NCBI GenBank assembly: GCA_946497775.1
Contig: CAMMLS010000003.1
Location: forward strand, 1,072 to 65,071
Length of the DNA: 64,000 bases
Reading direction: 5' to 3'
Source of the DNA: an uncultured Clostridium sp.
Lineage (GTDB): Bacteria > Bacillota > Clostridia > TANB77 > CAG-508
This document shows, piece by piece, positions 21,542 to 57,184 of this stretch. The translations under genes and the position numbers were made by a program. Numbering within the stretch: the stretch's first letter is position 1; every line of letters begins with the position of its first letter. The notes below the pieces were generated by a model. That model was not told the origin of the DNA, ran no database searches, and was given only the letters and a program-made list of their open reading frames with translations.

Positions 21542-21618
21542 GCGCCCTTAGCTCAGTTGGTCAGAGCAACCGGCTCATAACCGGTGGGTCCAAGGTTCGA
21601 ATCCTTGAGGGCGCACCA
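21542..21618 (+). tRNA. tRNA with CAU anticodon (elongator Met, or Ile2 if lysidine-modified)
   Basis: Acceptor GCGCCCT/AGGGCGC, anticodon arm ACCGG-CTCATAA-CCGGT, T-arm CAAGG-TTCGAAT-CCTTG, encoded CCA. Confidence 0.85.
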
Positions 21619-21643: not shown

Positions 21644-21729
21644 GGGTAGGTGGTCGAGTGGTTAAAGGCACCAGACTGTAAATCTGGCCGCGAGAGCGTA
21701 CGATGGTTCGAATCCATCCCTGCCCACCA
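21644..21729 (+). tRNA. tRNA-Tyr (GUA)
   Basis: Acceptor GGGTAGG/CCTGCCC, anticodon loop CTGTAAA, long variable arm, T-arm GATGG-TTCGAAT-CCATC, CCA. Confidence 0.85.
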
Positions 21730-23986: not shown

Positions 23987-24109
23987 TTAATAATACAATT
24001 TAATACCCAGATGTTTTAATATCTGGGTATATTTGTATAAAATTCTACAAAAACTATTGCAAAACGAATCTAAAAGAGATATAATATAACGCATAATCAA
24101 AATAAAAAC

Positions 24110-24356
24110 AAAGAAAAGGATACGGCAGGTAAAGTAAAACTTATAAGAGAGCCAAATAGTAGCTGAGATTTTGGTAAGATAATATGTTACTTGTTATCAC
24201 CTTGGAGTTGCTTGTTTGAAATTTTAGTAAAACAAGTCGTATGTCTGCGTTAAAGATAAATTAAGAGAAAAGTAAAACTTTTAAAATAGGTGGTACCGCG
24301 GAATTTAACCATTTCGTCCTATGTTAGTAAACATATGGATGAAATGGTTTTTTGAT
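24110..24356 (+). promoter_or_regulatory. T-box leader, isoleucine specifier (AUC), with terminator
   Basis: 'aataggtggtaccgcg' at 24285-24300. Terminator aaccatttcgtcc...ggatgaaatggtttttt. 'gttATCAccttggagt' specifier context parallels the thrS leader. Confidence 0.8.
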
Positions 24357-24409: not shown

Positions 24410-27184
24410 ATGAGTGAAGAAAAGAAAGATTATGGAAAAACTTTAAATTTGCCTAAAACAGATTTTCCTATGAGGGCAAGTCTGCCAGAAAATGAACCAA
24501 AAATTCTAGAAAATGTATTTGAAAATGGTTTATATGAAAAATGTTTAAAGAAAAATGAAGGAAATGAACCTTTTGTATTACATGATGGACCTCCATATGC
24601 TAATGGTGAAATTCATATAGGACATGCTTTAAACAAAATATTAAAGGATACAATTGTTAGATATAAAAATTTACAAGGATATTACACTCCATATATACCA
24701 GGGTATGATACACATGGTATGCCAACAGAGAAGAAAGCTATTGAAAAATTAGGTATAAACAGAGATGAAATACCTGTATCTAAATTTAGAGATATTTGCA
24801 AAGAATTTAATGAAAAATATATAGATGTTCAAACAAAAGGCTTTAAAAGACTTGGTGTTTTAGGAGATTGGGAACATCCATATATAACATATCAACCACA
24901 AATGGAAGCTAAACAAATTGAAGTTTTTGCAGATATGTACAAAAAAGGATATATATATAAAGGTCTAAAACCAGTTTACTGGTGTACAGATTGCGAAACA
25001 GCGTTAGCAGAAGCAGAAATCGAATATAAAGACCATAAAACAACATCTATTTATGTTAAATTCCCAGTAAAAGATTCAAAAGGATTATTTGATGCTGATA
25101 ATACTTTTTTTGTTATATGGACTACAACTCCTTGGACTTTACCTGGTAACGTTGCTATCACAATAGGGGAAGATTATGATTACAGCATAGTTGACACTGG
25201 AAAAGAAAAACTAATATTGGCTAGTGAACTTGTAAAACCAGTAATGGAACTTGCAGAGATTGAAGAATATAAAGAAGTAAAGAAGTTTAAAGGAAAAGAA
25301 TTAGAAGGAGTTTTATGCAAGCATCCATTCATAGATAGAGATTCAAGAGTTGTACTTGGAAGTGATGATACAATCTTAGTTGAATTAGATGCTGGTACTG
25401 GTGCAGTACACACAGCTCCTGGCTATGGTAAAGAAGACTATTTATGTAGCTTAAAAAATAATTTAGAAATAATAGTTTGTGTAGATGGAAAAGGATATCA
25501 AACAGAAGAGGCAGGCCCTTTTGCTGGAATGTACTATGAAAAATCTAATGATGCTATTATAGAATGGTTAGAAGAACATGGATATCTTCTAAAAAAACAA
25601 TCAATACTTCATCAATACCCACATTGTTGGAGATGTAAAAATCCAATAGTATTTAGAGCAACAAATCAATGGTTTGCATCTGTTGATGGATTTAGAAAAG
25701 AAACATTAGAAGCAATAAAAACAGTAAAATGGTATCCTGCTTGGGGTGAAGAGAGAATTACTAAAATGGTTGAAGAAAGAAACGACTGGTGTATTTCAAG
25801 ACAACGTACTTGGGGAGTTCCAATTCCAATATTCTATTGTGAAGATTGCGGAAAAGAATATGTAACACCAGAAAGTCTAACCAAAGTTCAAGAAATAGTA
25901 AGACAAAAAGGTACAAATGCATGGTTTGATATGCCAGCAGAAGAATTATTACCAGAAGGCGCAAAATGCTCTTGTGGATCTACAAAATTTAGAAAAGAAA
26001 CAGATATAATGGATGTTTGGTTTGATTCTGGTTCAACACATGTTTCTGCACTTGAAGAAAGAGGAATTCCAAGTGCTGATTTATATCTAGAAGGTAGCGA
26101 CCAATATAGAGGTTGGTTCCAATCTTCACTTTTAACATCTGTTGCAACAAGAGGTAAAGCACCATATAAAGGTGTTGTAACTCATGGTTATACAGTAGAT
26201 GAACAAGGAAGAAAAATGTCTAAATCATTAGGAAATGGAATTGACCCATGGGATGTAATAAATGAATCTGGTGCAGATATATTAAGACTTTGGGTATTAT
26301 CATCTGACTATACATCAGATATTAGTATTTCAAAAGGTATACTAAAACAAGTAAGTGAAGTTTACAGAAAAATAAGAAATACTGCTAGATATATATTAGG
26401 AAATACAAGCGATTTTGACGTAAACAACAAAGTTCCATATGAAGATTTAGAAGAAATCGATAAATGGGCATTAACAAGACTTAATAATTTAATAAGGGTA
26501 TGCACAAAAGCATATGATGAATACGAATTTAACAGAGCATACCAAGCAATTAATCACTTCTGTGTTGTAGATATGAGTAATTTCTATTTAGATATAATAA
26601 AAGATAGATTATACACATATAAAAAGGATTCAAAAGAAAGAAGAGCTGCTCAAACTGCAATGTATGAAATTTTACATTCATTAGTTAGAATTTTAGCACC
26701 AATGACAAGCTTTACAGCAGAAGAAATATGGAGCTTTATGCCACATAAAGAAGGCGAAAGCTTAGAAAGTGTAATGCTTACAATGTGGCCAAAAGTAAAT
26801 CCTGAATATGATAATAAAGAATTATCTGAAAAATGGGATAAAATAATTGCTTTAAAAGAAGAAGTTGCTAAAAAACTTGAACTTGCAAGAGCAGATAAAA
26901 CAATAGGTCATTCACTTAATGCAAAAGTTACAATACATGCAAGTGGAGAAAAATACGATTTTATAAAATCAGTAGAGTCAGAACTATTACAAGTATTTAT
27001 AGTATCAGATTTAGAAATAGTTAAAGATGATAAAAAGGATGAAGACACCTCTTTTGGAATTGCAGTAGATATTTCCGTTGCAGAAGGTGAAAAATGTGAG
27101 CGATGCTGGATGTATTCAAAAACAGTAGGAGAAGACAAAGAAAATCCTACAATCTGCCATAGATGTAGTGAGAATTTAAAATAA
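24410..27184 (+). CDS. ileS: isoleucine--tRNA ligase
   Basis: 924 aa. 'GEIHIGHALNK' (HIGH), 'KMSKSLGN', C-terminal Zn-finger cysteines (CERCW...CHRC). Confidence 0.97.
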   Translation: MSEEKKDYGKTLNLPKTDFPMRASLPENEPKILENVFENGLYEKCLKKNEGNEPFVLHDGPPYANGEIHIGHALNKILKDTIVRYKNLQGYYTPYIPGYDTHGMPTEKKAIEKLGINRDEIPVSKFRDICKEFNEKYIDVQTKGFKRLGVLGDWEHPYITYQPQMEAKQIEVFADMYKKGYIYKGLKPVYWCTDCETALAEAEIEYKDHKTTSIYVKFPVKDSKGLFDADNTFFVIWTTTPWTLPGNVAITIGEDYDYSIVDTGKEKLILASELVKPVMELAEIEEYKEVKKFKGKELEGVLCKHPFIDRDSRVVLGSDDTILVELDAGTGAVHTAPGYGKEDYLCSLKNNLEIIVCVDGKGYQTEEAGPFAGMYYEKSNDAIIEWLEEHGYLLKKQSILHQYPHCWRCKNPIVFRATNQWFASVDGFRKETLEAIKTVKWYPAWGEERITKMVEERNDWCISRQRTWGVPIPIFYCEDCGKEYVTPESLTKVQEIVRQKGTNAWFDMPAEELLPEGAKCSCGSTKFRKETDIMDVWFDSGSTHVSALEERGIPSADLYLEGSDQYRGWFQSSLLTSVATRGKAPYKGVVTHGYTVDEQGRKMSKSLGNGIDPWDVINESGADILRLWVLSSDYTSDISISKGILKQVSEVYRKIRNTARYILGNTSDFDVNNKVPYEDLEEIDKWALTRLNNLIRVCTKAYDEYEFNRAYQAINHFCVVDMSNFYLDIIKDRLYTYKKDSKERRAAQTAMYEILHSLVRILAPMTSFTAEEIWSFMPHKEGESLESVMLTMWPKVNPEYDNKELSEKWDKIIALKEEVAKKLELARADKTIGHSLNAKVTIHASGEKYDFIKSVESELLQVFIVSDLEIVKDDKKDEDTSFGIAVDISVAEGEKCERCWMYSKTVGEDKENPTICHRCSENLK

Positions 27185-27274: not shown

Positions 27275-27358
27275 TGGTGCGGTTGAGAGGACTTGAACCC
27301 CCACGTCAAAGACACTAGATCCTAAGTCTAGCGCGTCTGCCAGTTCCGCCACAACCGC
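27275..27358 (-). tRNA. tRNA-Leu (UAG)
   Basis: Revcomp reads GCGGTTG...anticodon loop CTTAGGA...long variable arm...GGTTCAAGTCC...CAACCGC-A-CCA. A hairpin at 27247-27274 lies downstream on the minus strand. Confidence 0.85.
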
Positions 27359-28533: not shown

Positions 28534-29394
28534 TTATTTTTTTATTCTACAACAATCAAAAAGATAATAAAGAGGATAAGGAATATGATTTTTTTCTAGT
28601 AGTTTATCAATAATTTGAGGTTTATCTACAAAAAAGTTAGCTGAAAGTATTTCTCTTTGTTTTCTATTAAAGAAGCAAGCTAATAGTGGAATATCACTGG
28701 TTTTATATCCAATCCTGTTTTCTTTTAAATATTTACAAGTAAACAATTTGCAAGCCATACAACTTATAGTGCATTTTTTATTTACTAAATGCTTGCACAA
28801 TTGTACATTGGTTGCTCCTTTCCAAATACTATAATCAAAAGAATAACAACATCCCATTGTTTCATGTACTGTTTTGTTTGCTCTGCTAGCTATACATTTA
28901 TCACACTTAAAATCACAATAATTATTTACAGCAAATTGTTCATCTAACTTATTGCATATAACATCATATATAAATTCATATTGCAAACGTTTATTATCTA
29001 TTAAAAGTGCCTGCACGGAATTTATTATATTTGAATAATCTAAATCTACATTTTCTGTTACTATTGCACACTTAATATTAATGCCTTCTATTAAATTTCC
29101 AATATGAATATTTGTTATATTACAATAATTAAATATCTTTATAAGATTTGAAATAATCTTTTTTTGTTCATCAATATTATAATTATTAGAAATATTAATA
29201 ACTATAAAAATCGATTCATTTATATTGGGGTTTAGCAATTTATTTATTTTTTTACTATTAATACTATTATTAAAACTAAATCCATTTTCATTAATATATA
29301 TAATGTTAGATGTGATTTTGTTATAAATTTCTTCTAAATCTGAAAGTATATATATATTATTAACAATTTTTTTATTTTCTAATTTACTATTCAT
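28534..29394 (-). CDS. cysteine-rich hypothetical protein
   Basis: ORF 28534-29502. The ATG at 29394 is preferred (AGGTGG 9 nt upstream). C-terminal half carries about 17 Cys, including 'CDFKCDKC' and 'GCCYSF'. Confidence 0.5.
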   Translation of the reverse strand: MNSKLENKKIVNNIYILSDLEEIYNKITSNIIYINENGFSFNNSINSKKINKLLNPNINESIFIVINISNNYNIDEQKKIISNLIKIFNYCNITNIHIGNLIEGINIKCAIVTENVDLDYSNIINSVQALLIDNKRLQYEFIYDVICNKLDEQFAVNNYCDFKCDKCIASRANKTVHETMGCCYSFDYSIWKGATNVQLCKHLVNKKCTISCMACKLFTCKYLKENRIGYKTSDIPLLACFFNRKQREILSANFFVDKPQIIDKLLEKNHIPYPLYYLFDCCRIKK

Positions 29395-29648
29395 TTCCAA
29401 CATCCACCTATAAATAGTATAACACTGTATGGTTATATTAACAATATAAAACATAAAAATACTTATAAAGAATTTAAAATTGAAGATAATTGTATTTTCC
29501 ATTGCTAAATATTAGGTTAAAACTAATATTTGGAGTTTTATTTTTAAGATTATATAAAAAGGCAATGTAATAGTAGTTATTTAGTTGACAAAATGATGTT
29601 TTAAAGATAGAATGTAGTAGACAAATTGCGTTATTCGGAGGAAAGCAA

Positions 29649-49685: not shown

Positions 49686-49751
49686 AATTTTTAAAATCTA
49701 GAAAAAATATTATTAAAATATATAATGAACACTAATTCTGAAAAAAATATA

Positions 49752-49789
49752 AAAATTACCATAATGTAGTAGAATTATGGTAATTTTTT
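49752..49789 (+). terminator. intrinsic terminator
   Basis: attaccataat gtagtaga attatggtaat + TTTTT. Confidence 0.75.
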
Positions 49790-49824
49790 ATTATTTGTGT
49801 TAAAATAAATTTGGTGATTAAATT

Positions 49825-51888
49825 ATGTTATCGGTTATTTTTAAAGGTATTATATTTTTAGTTTTAATGCTTATATTTTTTAGTAATAATGTATCTATTA
49901 TTCGTTTAGGTAACGCATATAGCAATATGCATATTGCTTTTGCTTTATTTTTAGCAATTATTGCTAGTTGTAAGTATAATGCTTTGAAGTATTATTTAGA
50001 AAGTAAAACAAAGCATAAATATGCATTTTGTATAGCCATTATTATTTTATTTTTTATAGCATTTAATTTATTTTACGCTTTTTTACCACAGGATTATGAA
50101 ATACATAATTGGCTTCTTAGCGAGTATAATCATAATATGGTCGATGCACAAACAAGAGATTTTACGTATTTACCAATATATTATAACTCGTTGAATATAT
50201 TGTCTATGACTTCTTTTGAGATGATTTTCTCTTTATTATTAATAGCAGTAGCATATATAAGAGAAAAAGCAAAAATAGGAGAGATGTCATACTTTTTAGA
50301 AAGAACTTTGAAAAGTGTGTTTAGATATAATTTATTAATTGTATTTTTAATTTATATACTAACAATTCCAAGTGGGATTGTAGATGTAATAAAAATTATA
50401 GGTATTATAGCTTTATTATTGTGGATTATATTTGAAAGCATAAAAACTTATTTGGCAATTAAAAGCTGTAGAATTAAAAACAAAGAAAAATATGGCAAAG
50501 ATAATTTAATTGTTGTTATGACTACTACGAATATTAATTTTAGCTTATCAGATTATTTACTAAACCCGCTTCATATTTTTTACAGATTTGATAATAAGAA
50601 TATATTTAAACCTTTAGTAGTTAGCGGAAAAAGTTATACATTTGTTTCTAATGATGCTATTAGATGTGGTCTTTTAGATATTAATCAGTTTAATGATAAT
50701 ATTGCATATATTTTCATGATTAATGCAGATTTACTTTTAATAGACACAAAAAGATATGAGTATGCAAAGAAAATAGAAGAAATTTCAAGTCAAACCAAAA
50801 AATTTTTAATTTACACAAAGGATGCATTTTTCTTTAAACCTGTTATTTTAAGAAACATCGAAAATAAATATTCTTTTAAAGTTAAAAATAAAGTATACTT
50901 AAAAGATATATTAGATGTTGTACACATTAAGCCAAATGCTGATGAGCTTAAATTAAAGGTAAAAGCATTACTAGAATTTATAAAGGATAAAGAGTTAGAT
51001 AATTATATAAAAGAAGAGTATGAAGCAGGCAGAATTAAAAAAGAGGATATTGAATCTAAAAAGCACACTTTGTACGAATTAATTCATGCAATACCACTTG
51101 ATAAAGAAGATGCATTAAAAATAGAAAAACAAACAAAGTTTATTGAAGAGGAAAAAAATACTTATTTAAAATATGGAGTAGAACAAATTTTAAATTCATT
51201 TAATTATATGGAGTATTTTTACACACTACTTAAAATGAGCGAATATGTAATTCATTACATGGGCTTAAAAAGCATTTTAGAAGAATCTAATGAAGACATA
51301 AAAATAGATAGTGTAAAATTTGGAACATGGAGAGAATTACTAGATTTTAATAAAGAATATAGCAGTAGAGATACTAAAAAAATCGAAAAGATAGTGAGCT
51401 TAAATGATATTGCAAATTCAATTATAGAAATTAACAAAATTGCAAGAAATAATAATAAAGAAATTTGTTTAGAAGATAAATTTTATTTTAAAGATGTATG
51501 CAAAGCGATTGGAACAATAAGAAACAGAATGTTAGTTCATGGTGCTGTATCATACAAAACCGCAGAAAATACAGTTGATTATTTGTTTAACTTATTATTT
51601 TTATTAGTAAAAGAATTTGAAGAATTAAATATAACAATAGGAGACGATGAGAAAATAAAAAATATTTTCGAAAAAGATATTTCGGCAGTTTACAGATATT
51701 CAAATAAAATGTTTTTATATTCAAATTCTGTATTAGAGGACAAAAAAGTGATTTATAATGAATGTATTAATTATGAAACAGGAAAGAAAAAAGTAATTGA
51801 TGGAAAAGCATGTTTTAATATAGATATTAGATATTCAATGGAACAAATTAAAGAAAAATTAGGAAAATGGATGTGGGATGTAAAATGA
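49825..51888 (+). CDS. hypothetical protein A: N-terminal multi-TM domain + soluble domain ending in an RNRxxxHG (HEPN-like) helical module
   Basis: 687 aa. About 5-6 TM helices in the first 215 aa or so. 'IGTIRNRMLVHGAVS' near aa 570. The C-terminal 250 aa or so are paralogous to gene B. Confidence 0.7.
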   Translation: MLSVIFKGIIFLVLMLIFFSNNVSIIRLGNAYSNMHIAFALFLAIIASCKYNALKYYLESKTKHKYAFCIAIIILFFIAFNLFYAFLPQDYEIHNWLLSEYNHNMVDAQTRDFTYLPIYYNSLNILSMTSFEMIFSLLLIAVAYIREKAKIGEMSYFLERTLKSVFRYNLLIVFLIYILTIPSGIVDVIKIIGIIALLLWIIFESIKTYLAIKSCRIKNKEKYGKDNLIVVMTTTNINFSLSDYLLNPLHIFYRFDNKNIFKPLVVSGKSYTFVSNDAIRCGLLDINQFNDNIAYIFMINADLLLIDTKRYEYAKKIEEISSQTKKFLIYTKDAFFFKPVILRNIENKYSFKVKNKVYLKDILDVVHIKPNADELKLKVKALLEFIKDKELDNYIKEEYEAGRIKKEDIESKKHTLYELIHAIPLDKEDALKIEKQTKFIEEEKNTYLKYGVEQILNSFNYMEYFYTLLKMSEYVIHYMGLKSILEESNEDIKIDSVKFGTWRELLDFNKEYSSRDTKKIEKIVSLNDIANSIIEINKIARNNNKEICLEDKFYFKDVCKAIGTIRNRMLVHGAVSYKTAENTVDYLFNLLFLLVKEFEELNITIGDDEKIKNIFEKDISAVYRYSNKMFLYSNSVLEDKKVIYNECINYETGKKKVIDGKACFNIDIRYSMEQIKEKLGKWMWDVK

Positions 51889-53141
51889 AACAAAATAGTT
51901 TAAAATTACATACAAATAAAAAGAACTTAAAAATAATTTTAATAGATGGAAATGTTTTGCCTAGTTCATTAGAGATAAAAAAAGAAGAAAAATACAAAAT
52001 TGCAAATAATCATGTATATATTAACATAAAAAATGAATTGCCTAAATTTAGTAGTAAAGAAAAACAATTTATAAATGAAAACACAATTGCAATTATACAT
52101 GAGGTAGAAGAAAATAACAATGTAGCTTTTGCAGAAAAATATAAAAGCATAGATATAAATAAAATAAACTTATTTCATATTATGGCTGTTAAAAATTATA
52201 AATTAAAAGACATAACAAGTAGTGGATCTATAAAAGTATGTGATTTAGATTCTGCAATAGAGTTTACAGAAAATCTTTTTATAACTAGTGAGCAGGAAAA
52301 TATTAAAAAATCAAGAATAAAAAAGGCATTAAGAAAAATATCTAAAATTAGAAAAAAACAGCCAAAAAATGATGAGATAAAAGAAGAATACATAAAAGAA
52401 CTAAATATAGTTTACCAATACAATTTTATAAATAGATTAAATAAAAAAATAGAATTAATCCCAAAAGAAAAAACTTTATTTAATTTATACAAAAATGCAT
52501 ATATGTATTCATCTTGCTATCAATCAGTTTTAGCAATGTTTGATTATATAACAGCAATGGGCAAAATGGTTGAATACTATTTATATGCAAAAAATAATCC
52601 CGGTTTCAAAAAAGATGTTGTATTTACAGATATAATAGGAGATAACCCACCTATATGGAATAATCAAATTTTAGTAAATGTTTGCAATAATAAAGAAAAT
52701 GTGTTATATAAAAATATTAGAGAAGAAAAATTTAAACTTACAGAAGATGAACAAATATTATTACACATTTATTTAAGTAATATATTAAATATGGATATAA
52801 CCGGAACAGAAATAACATTTGATGGCCTAGCAGAAATTTTTAGACAATTTAGAAATAGGGTAGAGGCACATGGAATTATAAGTGATGCAAATGTATATGC
52901 AGTTTGGAATTTAACACAATTTTTTGCAAAAATGTATAGTATAATATTCAAAATAGACCAGCTTGAATGTGAATTTAAACAAGATGAAAACGAAGCTAAA
53001 TTAGGTTATACAGGTGAACCAAAAGTAGAAGTAGGTAGATATATTACAGTTATAGATAATAGACTTTTATTTATTAAAGATAAAAAATCATATATAGATT
53101 ATCTTACAGGAGAAATTAAACCTGGGAAAGAGGTGAAATAG
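51885..53141 (+). CDS. hypothetical protein B: soluble paralogue of the C-terminal module of A (RNRxxxHG motif)
   Basis: ATG 51885 overlaps the TGA of A (ATGA). 'FRQFRNRVEAHGIIS'. No TM segments. Confidence 0.7.
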   Translation: MKQNSLKLHTNKKNLKIILIDGNVLPSSLEIKKEEKYKIANNHVYINIKNELPKFSSKEKQFINENTIAIIHEVEENNNVAFAEKYKSIDINKINLFHIMAVKNYKLKDITSSGSIKVCDLDSAIEFTENLFITSEQENIKKSRIKKALRKISKIRKKQPKNDEIKEEYIKELNIVYQYNFINRLNKKIELIPKEKTLFNLYKNAYMYSSCYQSVLAMFDYITAMGKMVEYYLYAKNNPGFKKDVVFTDIIGDNPPIWNNQILVNVCNNKENVLYKNIREEKFKLTEDEQILLHIYLSNILNMDITGTEITFDGLAEIFRQFRNRVEAHGIISDANVYAVWNLTQFFAKMYSIIFKIDQLECEFKQDENEAKLGYTGEPKVEVGRYITVIDNRLLFIKDKKSYIDYLTGEIKPGKEVK

Positions 53142-53144
53142 TAA

Positions 53145-55268
53145 TTGCGAAGTTTCGAACTATATTTAGACGAAAGTGGAAAATTTATTAACGAAGATAA
53201 AGCTTTAACTCCATCATTAATAGGTGGTATACTTGTAAAAACTGGAACTCTTAGTATAGAAAAAGCACAAAACATAATGAAATCAGCAATAGAAAAGGTT
53301 GGCACAAATTATGTACATATAAATGACTTAGCTTTATTAGATAAAAAACTAGCAGGAAAAGTTGCAGTAGATATTATGGAACAAATAAAAGCCATACCTG
53401 CAAATATAGTTATTTTTGAAAATAATGAATTACTAGATTTTAAAGATGATAAATTATTATATTTAAACATAATTACAGAAGGAATTATAAACTTGCTAGA
53501 AAAATTATCATTAGAAAAAGCAGATTCGGTAGAGCTAAATGTAATAGCAGCTGTTAGAAGAGATTTAAAAATAGATGATAATAAAACAATTATAGAACTA
53601 GAAGAATATAGTAAAAGAATTAAAGAAAGAATTTACATGAAGTTTGCAGAAAAAGACATTTTCTTATCTAAAAATTGCAGAGTAAATTTTGAACTTTCAT
53701 CAGCTAGAAAAAATGCAAAACTTATGCTATCAGATGTAGTATGCAACACTAGGTTAACAAGAAATAGTAGTAAATTTGATGATACTCAAAAAGAAAGAGT
53801 GGAGCAAATTTTTAATAGTAGTAAATATATTTTTAATGTATTTAGGACAAATATTCAGAAAAAATTATCAGAATATCTAATTAAAAACAATATAGTAGAT
53901 GCAATATTTTTAATAAATGAAATTGATGATGAAAAAACAAAAAAAGAGCTAATAAGTTTAATTATAAATAATATAAACACAATGCCAACATCAAATTTAA
54001 GAATACAATTAGAATTACTATCACTTAAAATCCGAAGCTTAATTGATGTACAAAGAAATTTACTTCTTTGCGAAAAACTTTTGCTTAATCTGCAAGAAAA
54101 TATAATTGGAAAAATAAAAGTAAAAGATTATATAATTAATAAGTTAAAACTTGATATTTCGCTTTATTTGCTTACAATATATACCCATTTAGGTAACAAT
54201 TTAAAATGCAAAACACAAATAGATATAAGCAAAGAGGAGTTAAAAACAATTAGTGGCTCATGGGAGTTTTTTGAATATTATTACATACTAAAAATAAGAG
54301 AAGCAATTTACTATAATACATGTTTTAATAATTTAAAAACAGTAGAAGTTTTAACAGAAGCAATAAATAAATACGAGCAAGTGCTAAAAACAATGGAAAC
54401 AATAGAAGAATTTGGAACAATAAAATCAGATACACTTGCAAAAGCTGTTGGAACAAGACTACAAGCATATATAGCTCTAATTAAACCAAACTTAGACGAG
54501 AAGACAAAAAATGAATATTACGAAAAAGCAGTAAAAGATTCAGAATATGCAATTTCTCAGTTTGTATCTGAATTAGATAAAAGAAGACAATACCAATATA
54601 GATGTATGCTAGAAATTTCAGTTGGAAATGTAGATACCGCTATAAAATACTTAATGAAAGTACTTGGAATTAATGAAATAAATTTTGAAAAGTTTATGTT
54701 GCAATTAGCAAATATATCTGATTTTTCTAAAAACTTTATTTTGGTAAATTACTTAGAAGTAATGCAATATTCAATAAATAATGGTAAAATAGATATTGGA
54801 ACAAAAATGTATGAAGCGTTTAAGAATAATGAAAATATTTTTAATGAATATTCACTAGAAAAATTAGAAAACAATTCTTTATATGAAAACACAACAAAAT
54901 TTTTAGGAATACATCCATTTGAAATTATATATTGGGATTTAGCAAAATATTTTAAAAATAATGACAAGGGGCTGGCTAATATTTATTTTGATAAAGCAAT
55001 TCAAATATGCAATCAAATTAACGAACCAGCAGTATCTGTATTAGAACTTGCAATAGAAGCAGATAAACTAACAATTTCAAAGGATATAAATATAGACAAA
55101 GAATCTCTTATAAATAAGTATGAGCAAATTATGGAAAAAGAAGAGTTTGGAGAAACACATGAATTTTTAAATAAATTAAGAGATGAAATTGAATATATTA
55201 AGCTTACCTCTGAAATTGGAGAAATAAAATCTATAGCAAAAAAAATTTTAGCAGAAATTAAAATTTAA
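53145..55268 (+). CDS. hypothetical protein C: DUF3800-like N-terminal domain + long helical-repeat (TPR-like) C-terminal region
   Basis: TTG start 9 nt after aagaggtg. 'FELYLDESGKF' and 'AKLMLSDVVCNT' resemble the DUF3800 DESG and (Q)xAD motifs. The remaining 490 aa or so are helical. Confidence 0.65.
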   Translation: MRSFELYLDESGKFINEDKALTPSLIGGILVKTGTLSIEKAQNIMKSAIEKVGTNYVHINDLALLDKKLAGKVAVDIMEQIKAIPANIVIFENNELLDFKDDKLLYLNIITEGIINLLEKLSLEKADSVELNVIAAVRRDLKIDDNKTIIELEEYSKRIKERIYMKFAEKDIFLSKNCRVNFELSSARKNAKLMLSDVVCNTRLTRNSSKFDDTQKERVEQIFNSSKYIFNVFRTNIQKKLSEYLIKNNIVDAIFLINEIDDEKTKKELISLIINNINTMPTSNLRIQLELLSLKIRSLIDVQRNLLLCEKLLLNLQENIIGKIKVKDYIINKLKLDISLYLLTIYTHLGNNLKCKTQIDISKEELKTISGSWEFFEYYYILKIREAIYYNTCFNNLKTVEVLTEAINKYEQVLKTMETIEEFGTIKSDTLAKAVGTRLQAYIALIKPNLDEKTKNEYYEKAVKDSEYAISQFVSELDKRRQYQYRCMLEISVGNVDTAIKYLMKVLGINEINFEKFMLQLANISDFSKNFILVNYLEVMQYSINNGKIDIGTKMYEAFKNNENIFNEYSLEKLENNSLYENTTKFLGIHPFEIIYWDLAKYFKNNDKGLANIYFDKAIQICNQINEPAVSVLELAIEADKLTISKDINIDKESLINKYEQIMEKEEFGETHEFLNKLRDEIEYIKLTSEIGEIKSIAKKILAEIKI

Positions 55269-55289
55269 AATTTGAAAGGGGAATTTTTT

Positions 55290-55964
55290 ATGAAAAACAA
55301 AAAAGTATTAATTGGAGTAATAATTGCAATTTTAGTAATTGCAGCAGTTGTAGCAGGGGTATTATTCTATCTTAATGCAACAAAAGAAGAAAATTCTAAA
55401 GAGAATAATGTTACAATAGGATCAGTAGAATTAATAGCAGTAGATCAAGAAGGAGAACCTATACCAGATGTTACTTTTGATTTAATGTCAGCGGATGGTC
55501 AAAAAGTTTATGGAACTTTAGAGACAGGAGTAGATGGAAGAATTATGTATTATGGGATGCCTATTGGAACCTTTATATTAAAAGGGACAAATCTTCCTGA
55601 GGGATATGAAGGTGCAGGTGCACAAGAAACTTTTGAGGTTTTTGGAGCAGAGACTACAAAAGTAGAAGTCGCTTTTACAAGAACTGTACCAAGACTTGTT
55701 ATAACAATAGAAAATGAACAAGGTGAAACTTTAAAAGATGCAGAAATTGATTTTTATAATGAAGATGGAAAATATGTTACAACTTTACTTGCACATGATG
55801 ATGGAATAGCTGCTAAAAATTTAGATGGAAATGGTGTTTATTATATAAAACAATGTAAAACACAAGAAGGTTATTTAATAGATGATACATCATATAGAGT
55901 AACAATAGATGGAGAAGACGACTTTACTTTCTATACAACAATAGTTAATAAAAAAGCTGAATAA
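55290..55964 (+). CDS. membrane-anchored protein with two SpaA/Cna-B-like prealbumin-fold repeats
   Basis: N-terminal TM helix. 'PIPDVTFDL...GTFILKGTNLPEGYEG' and 'LKDAEIDFY...GVYYIKQCKTQEGYLID' repeats. No LPXTG motif. Confidence 0.6.
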   Translation: MKNKKVLIGVIIAILVIAAVVAGVLFYLNATKEENSKENNVTIGSVELIAVDQEGEPIPDVTFDLMSADGQKVYGTLETGVDGRIMYYGMPIGTFILKGTNLPEGYEGAGAQETFEVFGAETTKVEVAFTRTVPRLVITIENEQGETLKDAEIDFYNEDGKYVTTLLAHDDGIAAKNLDGNGVYYIKQCKTQEGYLIDDTSYRVTIDGEDDFTFYTTIVNKKAE

Positions 55965-55990
55965 AATATTAATTTAAGGTGTGAAAATGA

Positions 55991-56332
55991 ATGGAAGAAG
56001 AATTTAAAATTATATTTAATATGCAAGATGAAATGTTTAATATTTTTCAAAAATCTTTTCAGAAAGATGGATATGAAATAGTTGCAAAAGAAAAAAATAT
56101 ATTATTTATAAAAAAATCCAAAATTAATTTAAGCAAAGACCAAATTGCGAGAATTTTAGGTATGTACAAATTGCAAAATCCAAATGGAGTATTATTTGTA
56201 GACATAACATCAGCAGTTAAATATTTAATAACTGTACCAGAAGAAAAAATAAAAAACGATGGAAGATTTAGATGGATGATGAGACAAGCACTAACAAAAG
56301 CAATAGTAGAAAAAAGCCAAAATGGAGGATAA
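55991..56332 (+). CDS. hypothetical protein (113 aa)
   Basis: ORF with an aaggtg RBS. No family recognised. Confidence 0.45.
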   Translation: MEEEFKIIFNMQDEMFNIFQKSFQKDGYEIVAKEKNILFIKKSKINLSKDQIARILGMYKLQNPNGVLFVDITSAVKYLITVPEEKIKNDGRFRWMMRQALTKAIVEKSQNGG

Positions 56333-56336
56333 AAAA

Positions 56337-56759
56337 ATGTGGAGTATAAAAAATTTATTTAAGAAAAATGAATGGATAGATCCATGGGAAGTTGAAGATG
56401 AAGAAGATTTTTTTGAAGATAATATGCAAGAAAAAGACAAAGAATATGATTTCCCTATTTTAAGAAGTGAGGCCATAAAAATTGCAAATGAAAACGAAAA
56501 TCTAAAAACGGACTTTTGCAGACAATACAAAAGGAATATTACATATTTATCTTTTAGAAAAAAGAAAATGGATTTAATAGAAAAAGATGGAAAAAAATAT
56601 TGGCAAATTCAAGTATTATATGGGGAAATTTCAGGAATAAATCAAAAAAGCTATGGAGAAGAATATTGGGATGGTTTCTTATTAAAAAGAGATTTGGAAA
56701 AATTAAGATGTCTAATAGATGTAGAAACAGGAGAATACATATATTATCCAATCAATTAA
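56337..56759 (+). CDS. hypothetical protein (140 aa)
   Basis: ATG 56337 after ggagga. Acidic N-terminus. No family recognised. Confidence 0.45.
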   Translation: MWSIKNLFKKNEWIDPWEVEDEEDFFEDNMQEKDKEYDFPILRSEAIKIANENENLKTDFCRQYKRNITYLSFRKKKMDLIEKDGKKYWQIQVLYGEISGINQKSYGEEYWDGFLLKRDLEKLRCLIDVETGEYIYYPIN

Positions 56760-56772
56760 GGAGATAAAATAG

Positions 56773-57153
56773 ATGGAAAACAATTATGAAAATATGAGCA
56801 AGTACTATTCAAATTTATATGATGAAAAAATGGAGAAATTTAGACTTTTATTTAAAGAAATGTTAGACTTTTTGAATATAAAATATGAAAAAGAAGACTT
56901 TTCTACATTAAAAAGTTTGGTATATGAAAACTATCCATATTACACACAAATAATTATTAATATAACTACAAAGCTTGGAGATATAAACCTTACATATAAA
57001 GAAATACTAGATAGTCTGGATAATATATATAAATATATTTCTAAAAATTATAGAAATCATGAGCAAAACATGAAAGATTATATAAAAGAACAAGAAGACA
57101 TGGAAGCATTGGGAGATAATTTCCTTCCAGAAGACGGAGAGGAAGAAAACTAA
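56773..57153 (+). CDS. hypothetical protein (126 aa)
   Basis: ORF with RBS aaggaga. Helical with an acidic tail. No family recognised. Confidence 0.45.
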   Translation: MENNYENMSKYYSNLYDEKMEKFRLLFKEMLDFLNIKYEKEDFSTLKSLVYENYPYYTQIIINITTKLGDINLTYKEILDSLDNIYKYISKNYRNHEQNMKDYIKEQEDMEALGDNFLPEDGEEEN

Positions 57154-57184
57154 AAAGGAGTAATTTTTAAATTGCTCCTTTTTT
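57153..57184. terminator. bidirectional terminator between convergent genes
   Basis: aaaaggagtaattt / aaattgctcctttt hairpin flanked by A and T runs. Confidence 0.7.

Follow-up and report, generated by a model that had tools for sequence, protein, structure and literature searches.

HEPN RNases need pairing or tandem domains to form a composite active site; Cas13, Csm6/Csx1, RnlA and the HEPN-MNT toxins act as such dimers or tandems, and Csx28 is a membrane HEPN-like accessory. DUF3800 proteins are RNase H-fold nucleases (PMC10910872, PMC13594972, PMC12669027, PMC7736814). Proteins that combine TPR and DUF3800 regions are reported at Cas12a2, Cas12a3 and type III loci, and some VI-F and V-A2 loci are reported to contain DUF3800 nucleases (PMC10910872, PMC13594972, PMC12669027). 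Mestre et al. described a DE...(Q)xxD signature for DUF3800, the Q of which is lost in retron type VII, where the DUF3800 protein occurs with or fused to the reverse transcriptase (PMC7736814). Here, a locus of three genes, designated A, B and C (positions 49825-55268), was analyzed in a 64,000-nucleotide stretch of contig CAMMLS010000003.1 (assembly GCA_946497775.1, positions 1,072 to 65,071 of the forward strand) from an uncultured Clostridium sp.; this whole stretch is referred to as the window. The locus is one copy of an unnamed gene module that is real and recurs in uncultured gut Firmicutes. The initial annotation, made from the letters alone, had proposed a defence-like architecture consisting of a membrane effector, paired HEPN-like modules and a repeat-containing sensor-like protein. 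We give about an even chance to the locus being an unnamed, rare conflict module, probably directed against phages or mobile elements, that works roughly by the mechanism set out below.

Compared with the described systems, the locus is of a familiar kind, with paired nuclease-like modules (A and B) and an accessory nuclease/sensor (C), and its linkage to surface-protein genes could make it categorically new. As far as sequence searches go, none of the libraries queried describes the A/B family, and its combination with a DUF3800-TPR protein is unnamed.

Recurrence and arrangement of the A, B and C genes

According to the open reading frame (ORF) list, gene A (49825..51888) encodes 687 amino acids (aa), gene B (51885..53141) encodes 418 aa and gene C (53145..55268) encodes 707 aa from a TTG start, all on the forward strand. 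The sequence read directly at the A/B junction is aaaATGAaa, and the start codon of B lies inside this ATGA overlap (51885-51888); an alternative in-frame ATG of B is present at 51867. The B stop codon TAG (53139-53141) is followed by a second in-frame stop TAA (53142-53144) and then by the TTG of C, which is preceded by a GAGGTG Shine-Dalgarno sequence 8 nucleotides (nt) to its 5' side. Both the overlap and the 3-nt gap described in the initial annotation are confirmed in the sequence.

A genome scan with the C alignment retrieved 19 loci (given below as L numbers, and proteins as P numbers), mostly from gut metagenome-assembled genomes (MAGs) that carry the label of uncultured Clostridia or Bacilli; Selenomonas, Peptococcaceae and others account for the rest. 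Gene arrangements were determined by running hidden Markov models for A, B and C on every ORF of the scanned loci and of loci retrieved later. Co-occurrence of the triad outside this genome, a test that the initial annotation had itself proposed, was found in 17 other loci, which display three arrangements. The A-B-C order is present in L001-L004, L008, L010, L012, L013, L015, L020 and L022-25. The order is permuted to C-A-B in L006, and L030 has C followed by a fused A-B gene, with a HicB antitoxin gene as a neighbour. The chromosomal sites differ, with pyk/FUSC and dacB genes flanking the window copy, polC and a tRNA synthetase gene in L022, IreB/RuvX in L020, and HicB and metG in L030. L020 is the closest relative of the window locus. 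Its C protein shares 84% identity with that of the window, and A, B and the SpaA and W proteins encoded further downstream share 54-66%. The G+C content of the locus is 0.244, and that of the flanks 0.26-0.28. The carriers are all uncultured gut Firmicutes, which would make the system invisible to model-organism screens.

A-type and B-type genes are always found either as adjacent genes (L032, L033, L035) or as single A-then-B fusions. In three two-motif proteins (P0208, P0219 and P0241), the N-terminal half is recognised by the A profile and the C-terminal half by the B profile, and these proteins are read as fusions that keep the gene order, A before B. By the Rosetta-stone argument, such fusions point to a physical interaction between A and B. 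No C was seen near the A/B pairs of L033, L032 and L035, and in L035 the B gene directly precedes a SpaA gene. The existence of pairs lacking C suggests that A/B is the core of the module and that C is an add-on, that is, a frequent and non-obligatory partner.

Split genes were noted in two loci, with B in two ORFs in L010 (L010:6095-7889) and C in two ORFs in L012 (L012:6432-8523). These are either decayed copies or MAG assembly errors. L001, which has the whole triad, bears the label 'uncultured Muribaculaceae' (Bacteroidota), whereas all other carriers are Firmicutes; this label probably reflects a binning error rather than the true distribution.

The paired A and B proteins

Six hydrophobic segments were identified in A within residues 2-201, and the positive-inside pattern places the remaining 486 residues in the cytoplasm, in agreement with the multi-transmembrane (TM) N-terminus and soluble region described in the initial annotation. 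The six-TM N-terminus (aa 2-201) is followed by a cytoplasmic middle region and by a C-terminal module (aa 441-657) that is paralogous to that of B. B is a soluble protein of 418 aa composed of an alpha/beta domain (aa 16-131), a helical domain (142-355) and a beta-rich C-terminal domain (360-413), and its AlphaFold model has a pLDDT of 85 and a pTM of 0.86. In this model, helix 312-327 ends in an R-N-x4-H-G motif and is followed by helix 337-355, the motif region being all-helical.

Database searches yielded 15 proteins related to A, 64 related to B and 86 related to C, nearly all of them unnamed. Neither A nor B has a significant match in Pfam, NCBIfam, PHROGs or PADLOC, and the 15 A homologues match nothing in Pfam, PADLOC or NCBIfam. 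The earlier statement that no metabolic or envelope enzyme is recognisable among the three proteins is borne out, with the libraries silent on A and B and returning only sub-threshold TPR matches for C. When the B family was used in an exhaustive profile search, 82 representatives were retrieved from 1.84 billion proteins, and the R-N-x4-H-G motif is kept in every full-length relative among them. The distant relatives share only the C-terminal ~230 residues, corresponding to the helical and beta-rich domains. They show several architectures, including membrane proteins of ~550-880 aa, soluble proteins of ~400 aa and proteins of ~1100 aa with two motifs.

The motif of B, located in the alignment of relatives, reads R-N-R-V-E-A-H-G (R323-G330; 52851..52874, forward strand). 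That of A reads R-N-R-M-L-V-H-G (R566, N567, H572, G573; 51520..51543, forward strand), shows conservation of at least 90% across the A family and aligns to the B motif. In B numbering, R323, H329 and G330 are the sole invariant residues across 49 diverse relatives. Pairwise BLASTP between A and B covers the RNRxxxHG motif only (E 0.28), and the narrow family profiles match weakly (E 0.0075). With profiles widened to the superfamily, however, hhalign aligns A 441-657 with B 191-413 over 199 columns with a probability of 95.8% and an E value of 6.9e-9. Three collinear motifs lie in this stretch, namely KNxYL...FNY...KMxEY, F..[LV]......RN[KR]xxxHG.IS and [IN]NY.TG. On this profile comparison A and B are considered genuine paralogues over a C-terminal module of ~215 aa, and the earlier reading of B as a soluble paralogue of the C-terminal module of A is retained.

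Most B homologues carry a ~145-aa four-TM anchor. It is missing from the B of the window, and no remnant of it was found in the window. A short B is also present in L035 (420 aa), with an identical ATGA junction, and the ratio of nonsynonymous to synonymous substitution rates (dN/dS) for this pair of B genes is 0.24. The possibility that the window B is a recent truncation or pseudogene was rejected on these observations. The soluble domain of the long form is predicted to be cytoplasmic from the basic N-terminus, K-rich second loop and basic segment after the fourth helix in the aligned N-terminal domains of long B homologues. The combination of an anchored A and a soluble B in the window parallels the A-B fusions, which have a single N-terminal anchor.

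The R-N-x4-H-G motif is an R-x5-H motif and falls within the Rx4-6H pattern of HEPN domains. A and B resemble the HEPN RNases in carrying this motif, with N after R, in an all-helical domain, in always having two motif modules and in having one version that is membrane-tethered. The dimer or tandem arrangement typical of HEPN-type enzymes is seen at the gene level, where A- and B-type modules are invariably neighbours or fused. The homology searches speak against such an assignment. No HEPN Pfam family was matched at E<=1 by any of 44 B-family members, or at E<=0.1 by any of 10 distant architectures. Sequence-profile searches of PDB with three alignments returned designed repeat proteins or noise only, with no HEPN protein. 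Foldseek with the whole-chain B model against PDB yielded no match with E below 1e-3, and its 50 best matches included no HEPN protein. The conserved A/B module, with seven helices plus a beta domain, also exceeds the size of a canonical HEPN domain, and the beta domain contains a Y-x-T/x-G motif. Thus the R-x5-H motif and the pairing proposed in the initial annotation stand, while its HEPN-like label finds no match in Pfam, in PDB profiles or by Foldseek. A HEPN-like RNase is still the best mechanistic guess for A/B, at the level of the motif and not as a family assignment, and we give this guess about an even chance.

In the mechanism that we favour, A and B would associate at the membrane as a heterodimer, with cytoplasmic modules that each carry one R-N-x4-H-G motif. 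The paired R/H motifs would make a composite active site, probably RNA-cleaving, as in HEPN-type metal-independent RNases. In the window, A alone would supply the membrane anchor, as in the natural A-B fusions. If A/B is an RNase pair, it would represent a new and very rare family without a Pfam, PADLOC or PDB counterpart, given the few representatives retrieved above. It would also provide DUF3800-TPR accessories with a CRISPR-independent partner that could be dissected in a simple three-gene context.

Protein C and its relatives in other systems

The N-terminal region of C (aa 1-235; 53145..53849, forward strand) is a DUF3800-like (RNase H-fold-type) alpha/beta domain, as assigned from the alignment, AlphaFold and weak Pfam matches. 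The C-terminal region (aa 236-707; 53850..55268, forward strand) is an all-helical TPR-like array, as assigned from AlphaFold, Foldseek and weak TPR_8 matches. The AlphaFold model of C (pLDDT 87, pTM 0.73) contains five strands in the alpha/beta domain and is all-helical in the remainder. An invariant LDESG sequence, with D9-E10-S11-G12 encoded at 53169-53180, lies at the end of strand 1. H58, N93/E95 and E112 are also conserved and D197 is invariant, giving an acidic set of D9, E10, E95, E112 and D197. C therefore fits the DE...(Q)xxD signature of DUF3800, with the Q absent from the segment LMLSD197. The C protein of the window does not match Pfam DUF3800 (PF12686) at E<=1 and so lies below the gathering threshold. 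Weak matches to this family were obtained for 7 of 17 C-family members (best E 0.0015), and the C relative P0157 is labelled 'DUF3800 domain-containing' by NCBI.

Whole-chain Foldseek searches of C against PDB and BFVD returned only TPR proteins; the array dominates these searches, and the N-terminal fold is thus without a match of its own. The helical region matches MalT domain III (probability 1.0; TM-score 0.63 on the target), Rap/NprR proteins (0.5-0.6) and the STAND-TPR structure 6mfv. The Pfam matches of C to TPR_8 and TPR_2 are weak and sub-threshold. Basic motifs are conserved within the array at residues 433-440 (KxxGTRLQ) and 481-486 (RQYQYR). C is read as a divergent DUF3800-type domain joined to a TPR array, and the DUF3800-like N-terminus with helical repeats proposed in the initial annotation holds. 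In the favoured mechanism, C would be an auxiliary DUF3800 nuclease under the control of a TPR sensor, with an array of the type found in ligand- or protein-sensing regulators, and would be recruited by different immune systems.

Like the TPR-DUF3800 accessories of CRISPR loci, C joins a DUF3800-like domain that keeps the acidic residues to a long TPR array and appears as an add-on beside a putative nuclease system; this likeness is one of names and descriptions, and the C family matches Pfam DUF3800 only weakly. The partner of C, in contrast, is the A/B membrane pair, and neither a CRISPR array nor a cas gene was seen in the window with ORF lists, domain scans and Rfam, a dedicated repeat search not being part of this survey. 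Similar to the DUF3800 protein of retron type VII, C has the N-terminal DE motif and lacks the Q of the C-terminal QxxD (PMC7736814). It differs from that protein by its ~470-aa TPR array, and the domain scan and Rfam revealed no reverse transcriptase or msr/msd-like RNA at the locus.

Genes of a distant C branch (27-29% identity) lie directly 5' of the PADLOC candidate system PDC-M26A/B, a McrBC-like pair of an AAA_5 ATPase and a PD-(D/E)XK nuclease, often together with a transposase, in L014, L019 and L026-29. The C-branch, AAA_5 and PD-(D/E)XK genes are located at L014:5040-12163, L019:3835-10133 and L026:9001-15977. In contrast to these loci, the window contains no McrBC-like genes, and the PDC-M26 definition contains no DUF3800-TPR protein, as shown by the lack of any PADLOC match for C. 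The gene order suggests that PDC-M26 has an unrecognised third, DUF3800-TPR component. In Selenomonas massiliensis (L016:8001-17679), a distant C-family gene heads a five-gene cluster. The second and fourth genes encode unknown proteins of 549 and 537 aa, the third an Hsp70-like ATPase (Pfam, 8e-32) and the fifth an NB-ARC/NACHT STAND NTPase. None of these four downstream proteins is matched by any PADLOC model, and the cluster may be another unnamed system. The presence of C relatives beside different immune-type systems points to C as a portable auxiliary nuclease/sensor. A further C gene with 39% identity (L011:6365-7801) is preceded by DUF2828/DUF7788 (vWA-like) and AAA_14/DUF4143-type ATPase-like genes, and not by A/B.

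Surface-protein genes, genomic context and possible functions

The locus had been described as a stand-alone unit of three genes, which is not upheld. The conserved unit runs past 55268 to 57153 and includes a SpaA-domain gene and three small ORFs, and relatives have surface-protein genes 5' of A. The SpaA gene (55290..55964, forward strand) encodes a two-domain (prealbumin/Ig-like) protein that has a membrane anchor at its N-terminus and lacks an LPXTG signal (Pfam SpaA, 2e-22). It begins 21 nt after C; the listed ORF starts with TTG at 55272, and the ATG at 55290 is preceded by an AAAGGGG Shine-Dalgarno sequence. The encoded protein shares 59% identity with its positional counterpart in L020. 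The small ORFs, also on the forward strand, are designated W1 to W3. W1 (55991..56332; 113 aa) shares 66% identity with a 114-aa gene product at the same position in L020. W2 (56322..56759; 145 aa, annotated with 140 aa in identical contigs) is homologous to residues 339-435 of a 437-aa protein encoded directly 3' of C in L004. W3 (56773..57153; 126 aa) shares 54% identity with the C-terminal half of a 241-aa gene product of L020, and also matches the W proteins of L004 and L013. The W1-W3 region (55991-57153) corresponds to single proteins elsewhere (437 aa, L004:10137-11450; 332 aa, L013:763-1761), and two of the W ORFs in the window match separate segments of the L004 437-aa protein. The W proteins are recognised by no family library searched.

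Hairpins are found at both ends of the unit. Folding placed a hairpin with a T-run at 57152..57183 (dG -14.5, z -5.65; recorded without a strand), where it closes the operon and faces the convergent gene for a PBP5-type carboxypeptidase. On the other side, folding and strain comparison identified an intrinsic-terminator-like hairpin with a U-run between a FUSC-like gene and A (49746..49792, forward strand), confirming that the three large ORFs follow a terminator. It has a dG of -15.8 kcal/mol (z -5.9), its fold is equalled by none of 200 shuffles, and it is kept between strains. A consensus terminator scanner, which demands a high G+C content, did not call this hairpin because it is AT-rich. 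Only ~35 nt, containing a GGTGA Shine-Dalgarno sequence, separate it from the ATG of A. Relative to L037/L039, a 29-bp indel at window positions 49714-49742 lies between the stop codon of the FUSC-like gene and the conserved hairpin. This indel takes out the best promoter-like -10 element upstream of A (TATAAT, 49721-49726), which leaves read-through or a promoter overlapping the hairpin as options for transcription of the A operon.

SpaA and thioester-domain (TED)-like genes are located directly 5' of A in L002, L004, L008, L010, L012, L013, L015 and L022-25, most of which have a second SpaA-type gene. In L020, the TED-like gene precedes A and the SpaA gene follows C. No TED-like gene is present in the window. 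Among the triad loci with sequenced flanks, L003, L006 and L030 have no surface-protein genes, which indicates that the SpaA and TED-like genes are lineage-specific accessories to A/B/C and not the reverse; their candidacy as the core of the module was rejected on this absence. Like the SpaA/TED surface proteins of Gram-positive bacteria, the SpaA protein of the window has two SpaA domains, and the TED-like proteins of the relatives (L002, L004, L008, L010, L012, L013, L015, L020 and L022; for example, L022:3296-4279) keep the thioester Gln motif QLAIWE. In contrast to them, the SpaA and TED-like proteins here are small, have N-terminal anchors and no LPXTG, and are encoded in an operon with cytoplasmic nuclease-like proteins. 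The TED-like proteins show no conserved Cys, and FSLS occupies the expected place of the Cys in the family alignment as judged by eye. These proteins may be non-reactive or form a different cross-link.

The surface-protein linkage would also fit an envelope or cell-surface function, and we know of no counterpart among known defence systems to such a regular association with SpaA and TED-like proteins. In such a module, the SpaA and TED-like proteins would be the output or the input (adhesion, wall attachment or surface sensing), A and B would be polytopic partners acting as assembly factors or signal transducers, and C would regulate or process nucleic acid; its role would then lie outside immunity, for instance in responding to contact with the host or a matrix or to envelope stress. 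This explanation is in line with the position of the surface genes, with the N-terminal anchoring of all surface proteins, and with a locus that is stable within its lineage and lies near polysaccharide glycosyltransferase, PBP5 carboxypeptidase and two-component system genes. It is less easily reconciled with the three triad loci that lack surface genes, with a window that lacks a TED-like gene, with the predicted cytoplasmic location of the soluble domains of A and of long-form B, and with the restriction-like, STAND and CRISPR systems with which C relatives associate. We consider it unlikely.

A hybrid of the two explanations is an outside-in immune sensor, in which the Ig-like and TED-like proteins would detect phage adsorption or wall breaching and signal through the A/B membrane domains to the R/H modules and the DUF3800-TPR nuclease. 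Envelope-sensing roles that are conceptually similar have been reported for Zorya and Kiwa. The co-occurrence of SpaA/TED-like genes with A/B/C, the topology of the proteins, and the fast divergence of membrane and surface components relative to C are consistent with this hybrid. Against it, the surface genes are dispensable in the lineages of L003, L006 and L030, the window has a B without a membrane anchor and no TED-like gene, and a thioester Cys seems to be missing from the TED-like proteins. The hybrid is purely inferential and appears improbable, falling behind the envelope function. Equally doubtful is its fullest form, a membrane-spanning immune device in which surface sensors would act through A/B on a two-motif RNase of previously undescribed fold and on the DUF3800-TPR nuclease. 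If true, this nuclease would be an accessory shared with Cas12a2, Cas12a3 and type III systems, implying a common downstream step, for example the recognition or clearance of RNA-cleavage products. In the mechanism that we favour, the SpaA protein, with its membrane anchor and extracytoplasmic Ig-like domains, and the small W proteins of the cytoplasm would modulate or trigger the A/B/C proteins, and may couple the module to envelope events. The effector and sensor roles assigned in the initial annotation are guesses. Given the recurring link to membrane-anchored Ig-like and thioester-like proteins of the surface, Gram-positive bacteria may couple cell-surface events to cytoplasmic nucleases.

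Together with the surface-protein linkage, the genomic context of the locus weighs against a role in conflict. The window copy is flanked by genes for glycosyltransferases, glycogen phosphorylase, pyruvate kinase, the FUSC-like protein, the PBP5 carboxypeptidase and a two-component system, with no integrase or defence gene in the window flanks. Among 100 flanking proteins of 13 related loci, there are few strong PADLOC matches (PDC-S01, mad3, mad8, an LmuA-like fragment and PbeA). For residency in a defence island, a check suggested by the initial annotation, the signs are mixed: the window locus lies among housekeeping and envelope genes, the related loci have defence genes nearby only occasionally, and distant C-only relatives are clearly next to such genes. 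All 13 contigs of the same lineage that encode an identical FUSC-like protein carry the same seven-gene locus. No empty site was found by exact-match look-up of the FUSC-like protein (13 occupied), and a metagenome scan with the FUSC-like flank gave no match. No relatives of B or C were found in searches of viral contigs, phage records and plasmid records. PADLOC-DB v2 gave no family for A, B, C or five neighbouring ORFs even at E<=1, in accordance with the earlier failure to match the combination to a named system. Defence-type neighbours occur elsewhere, with HicB adjoining L030 and a TIR protein 8 kb from L033. Of the proposed defence-like architecture, the defence company of C relatives, the pairing of A with B and the lack of a named match stand; the window is not a defence island, and the surface-gene linkage was not foreseen. 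The picture is compatible with a chromosomally resident conflict system without the usual defence-island signature. Insertion of a prophage or plasmid was considered and rejected, no supporting genes being present at the locus, and Rfam, including the DUF3800-associated RNA motifs, identified nothing there.

A selfish, toxin-antitoxin-like addiction cassette without an immune role would present A/B as a membrane-tethered toxin pair controlled by C and/or the W proteins. The tight translational coupling, the HicB antitoxin gene next to the L030 copy, the small acidic cytoplasmic ORFs at the 3' end and the occasional decayed copies are features that such a cassette might show. The genes are, however, very large for a toxin-antitoxin system, the locus is stably chromosomal with no carriage by mobile elements found in the viral, phage and plasmid records, and B is under purifying selection (dN/dS 0.24). 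Such a cassette is the least probable of the explanations considered, and we rate its chance as very small.

Other features of the window were also noted. A block of low GC (0.22-0.27) occupies ~29000-43400, on the 5' side of glgP, pyk and the FUSC-like gene. Its products include family 1 and family 2 glycosyltransferases and a DUF6020 membrane protein, and it probably serves the biosynthesis of a surface polysaccharide. A T-box leader (24102-24324; 114.5 bits) is located 5' of a 924-aa ORF (24410-27184), which presumably encodes an aminoacyl-tRNA synthetase. The tRNA genes of this region are located at 21542-21615, 21644-21726 and 27278-27358 (reverse strand).

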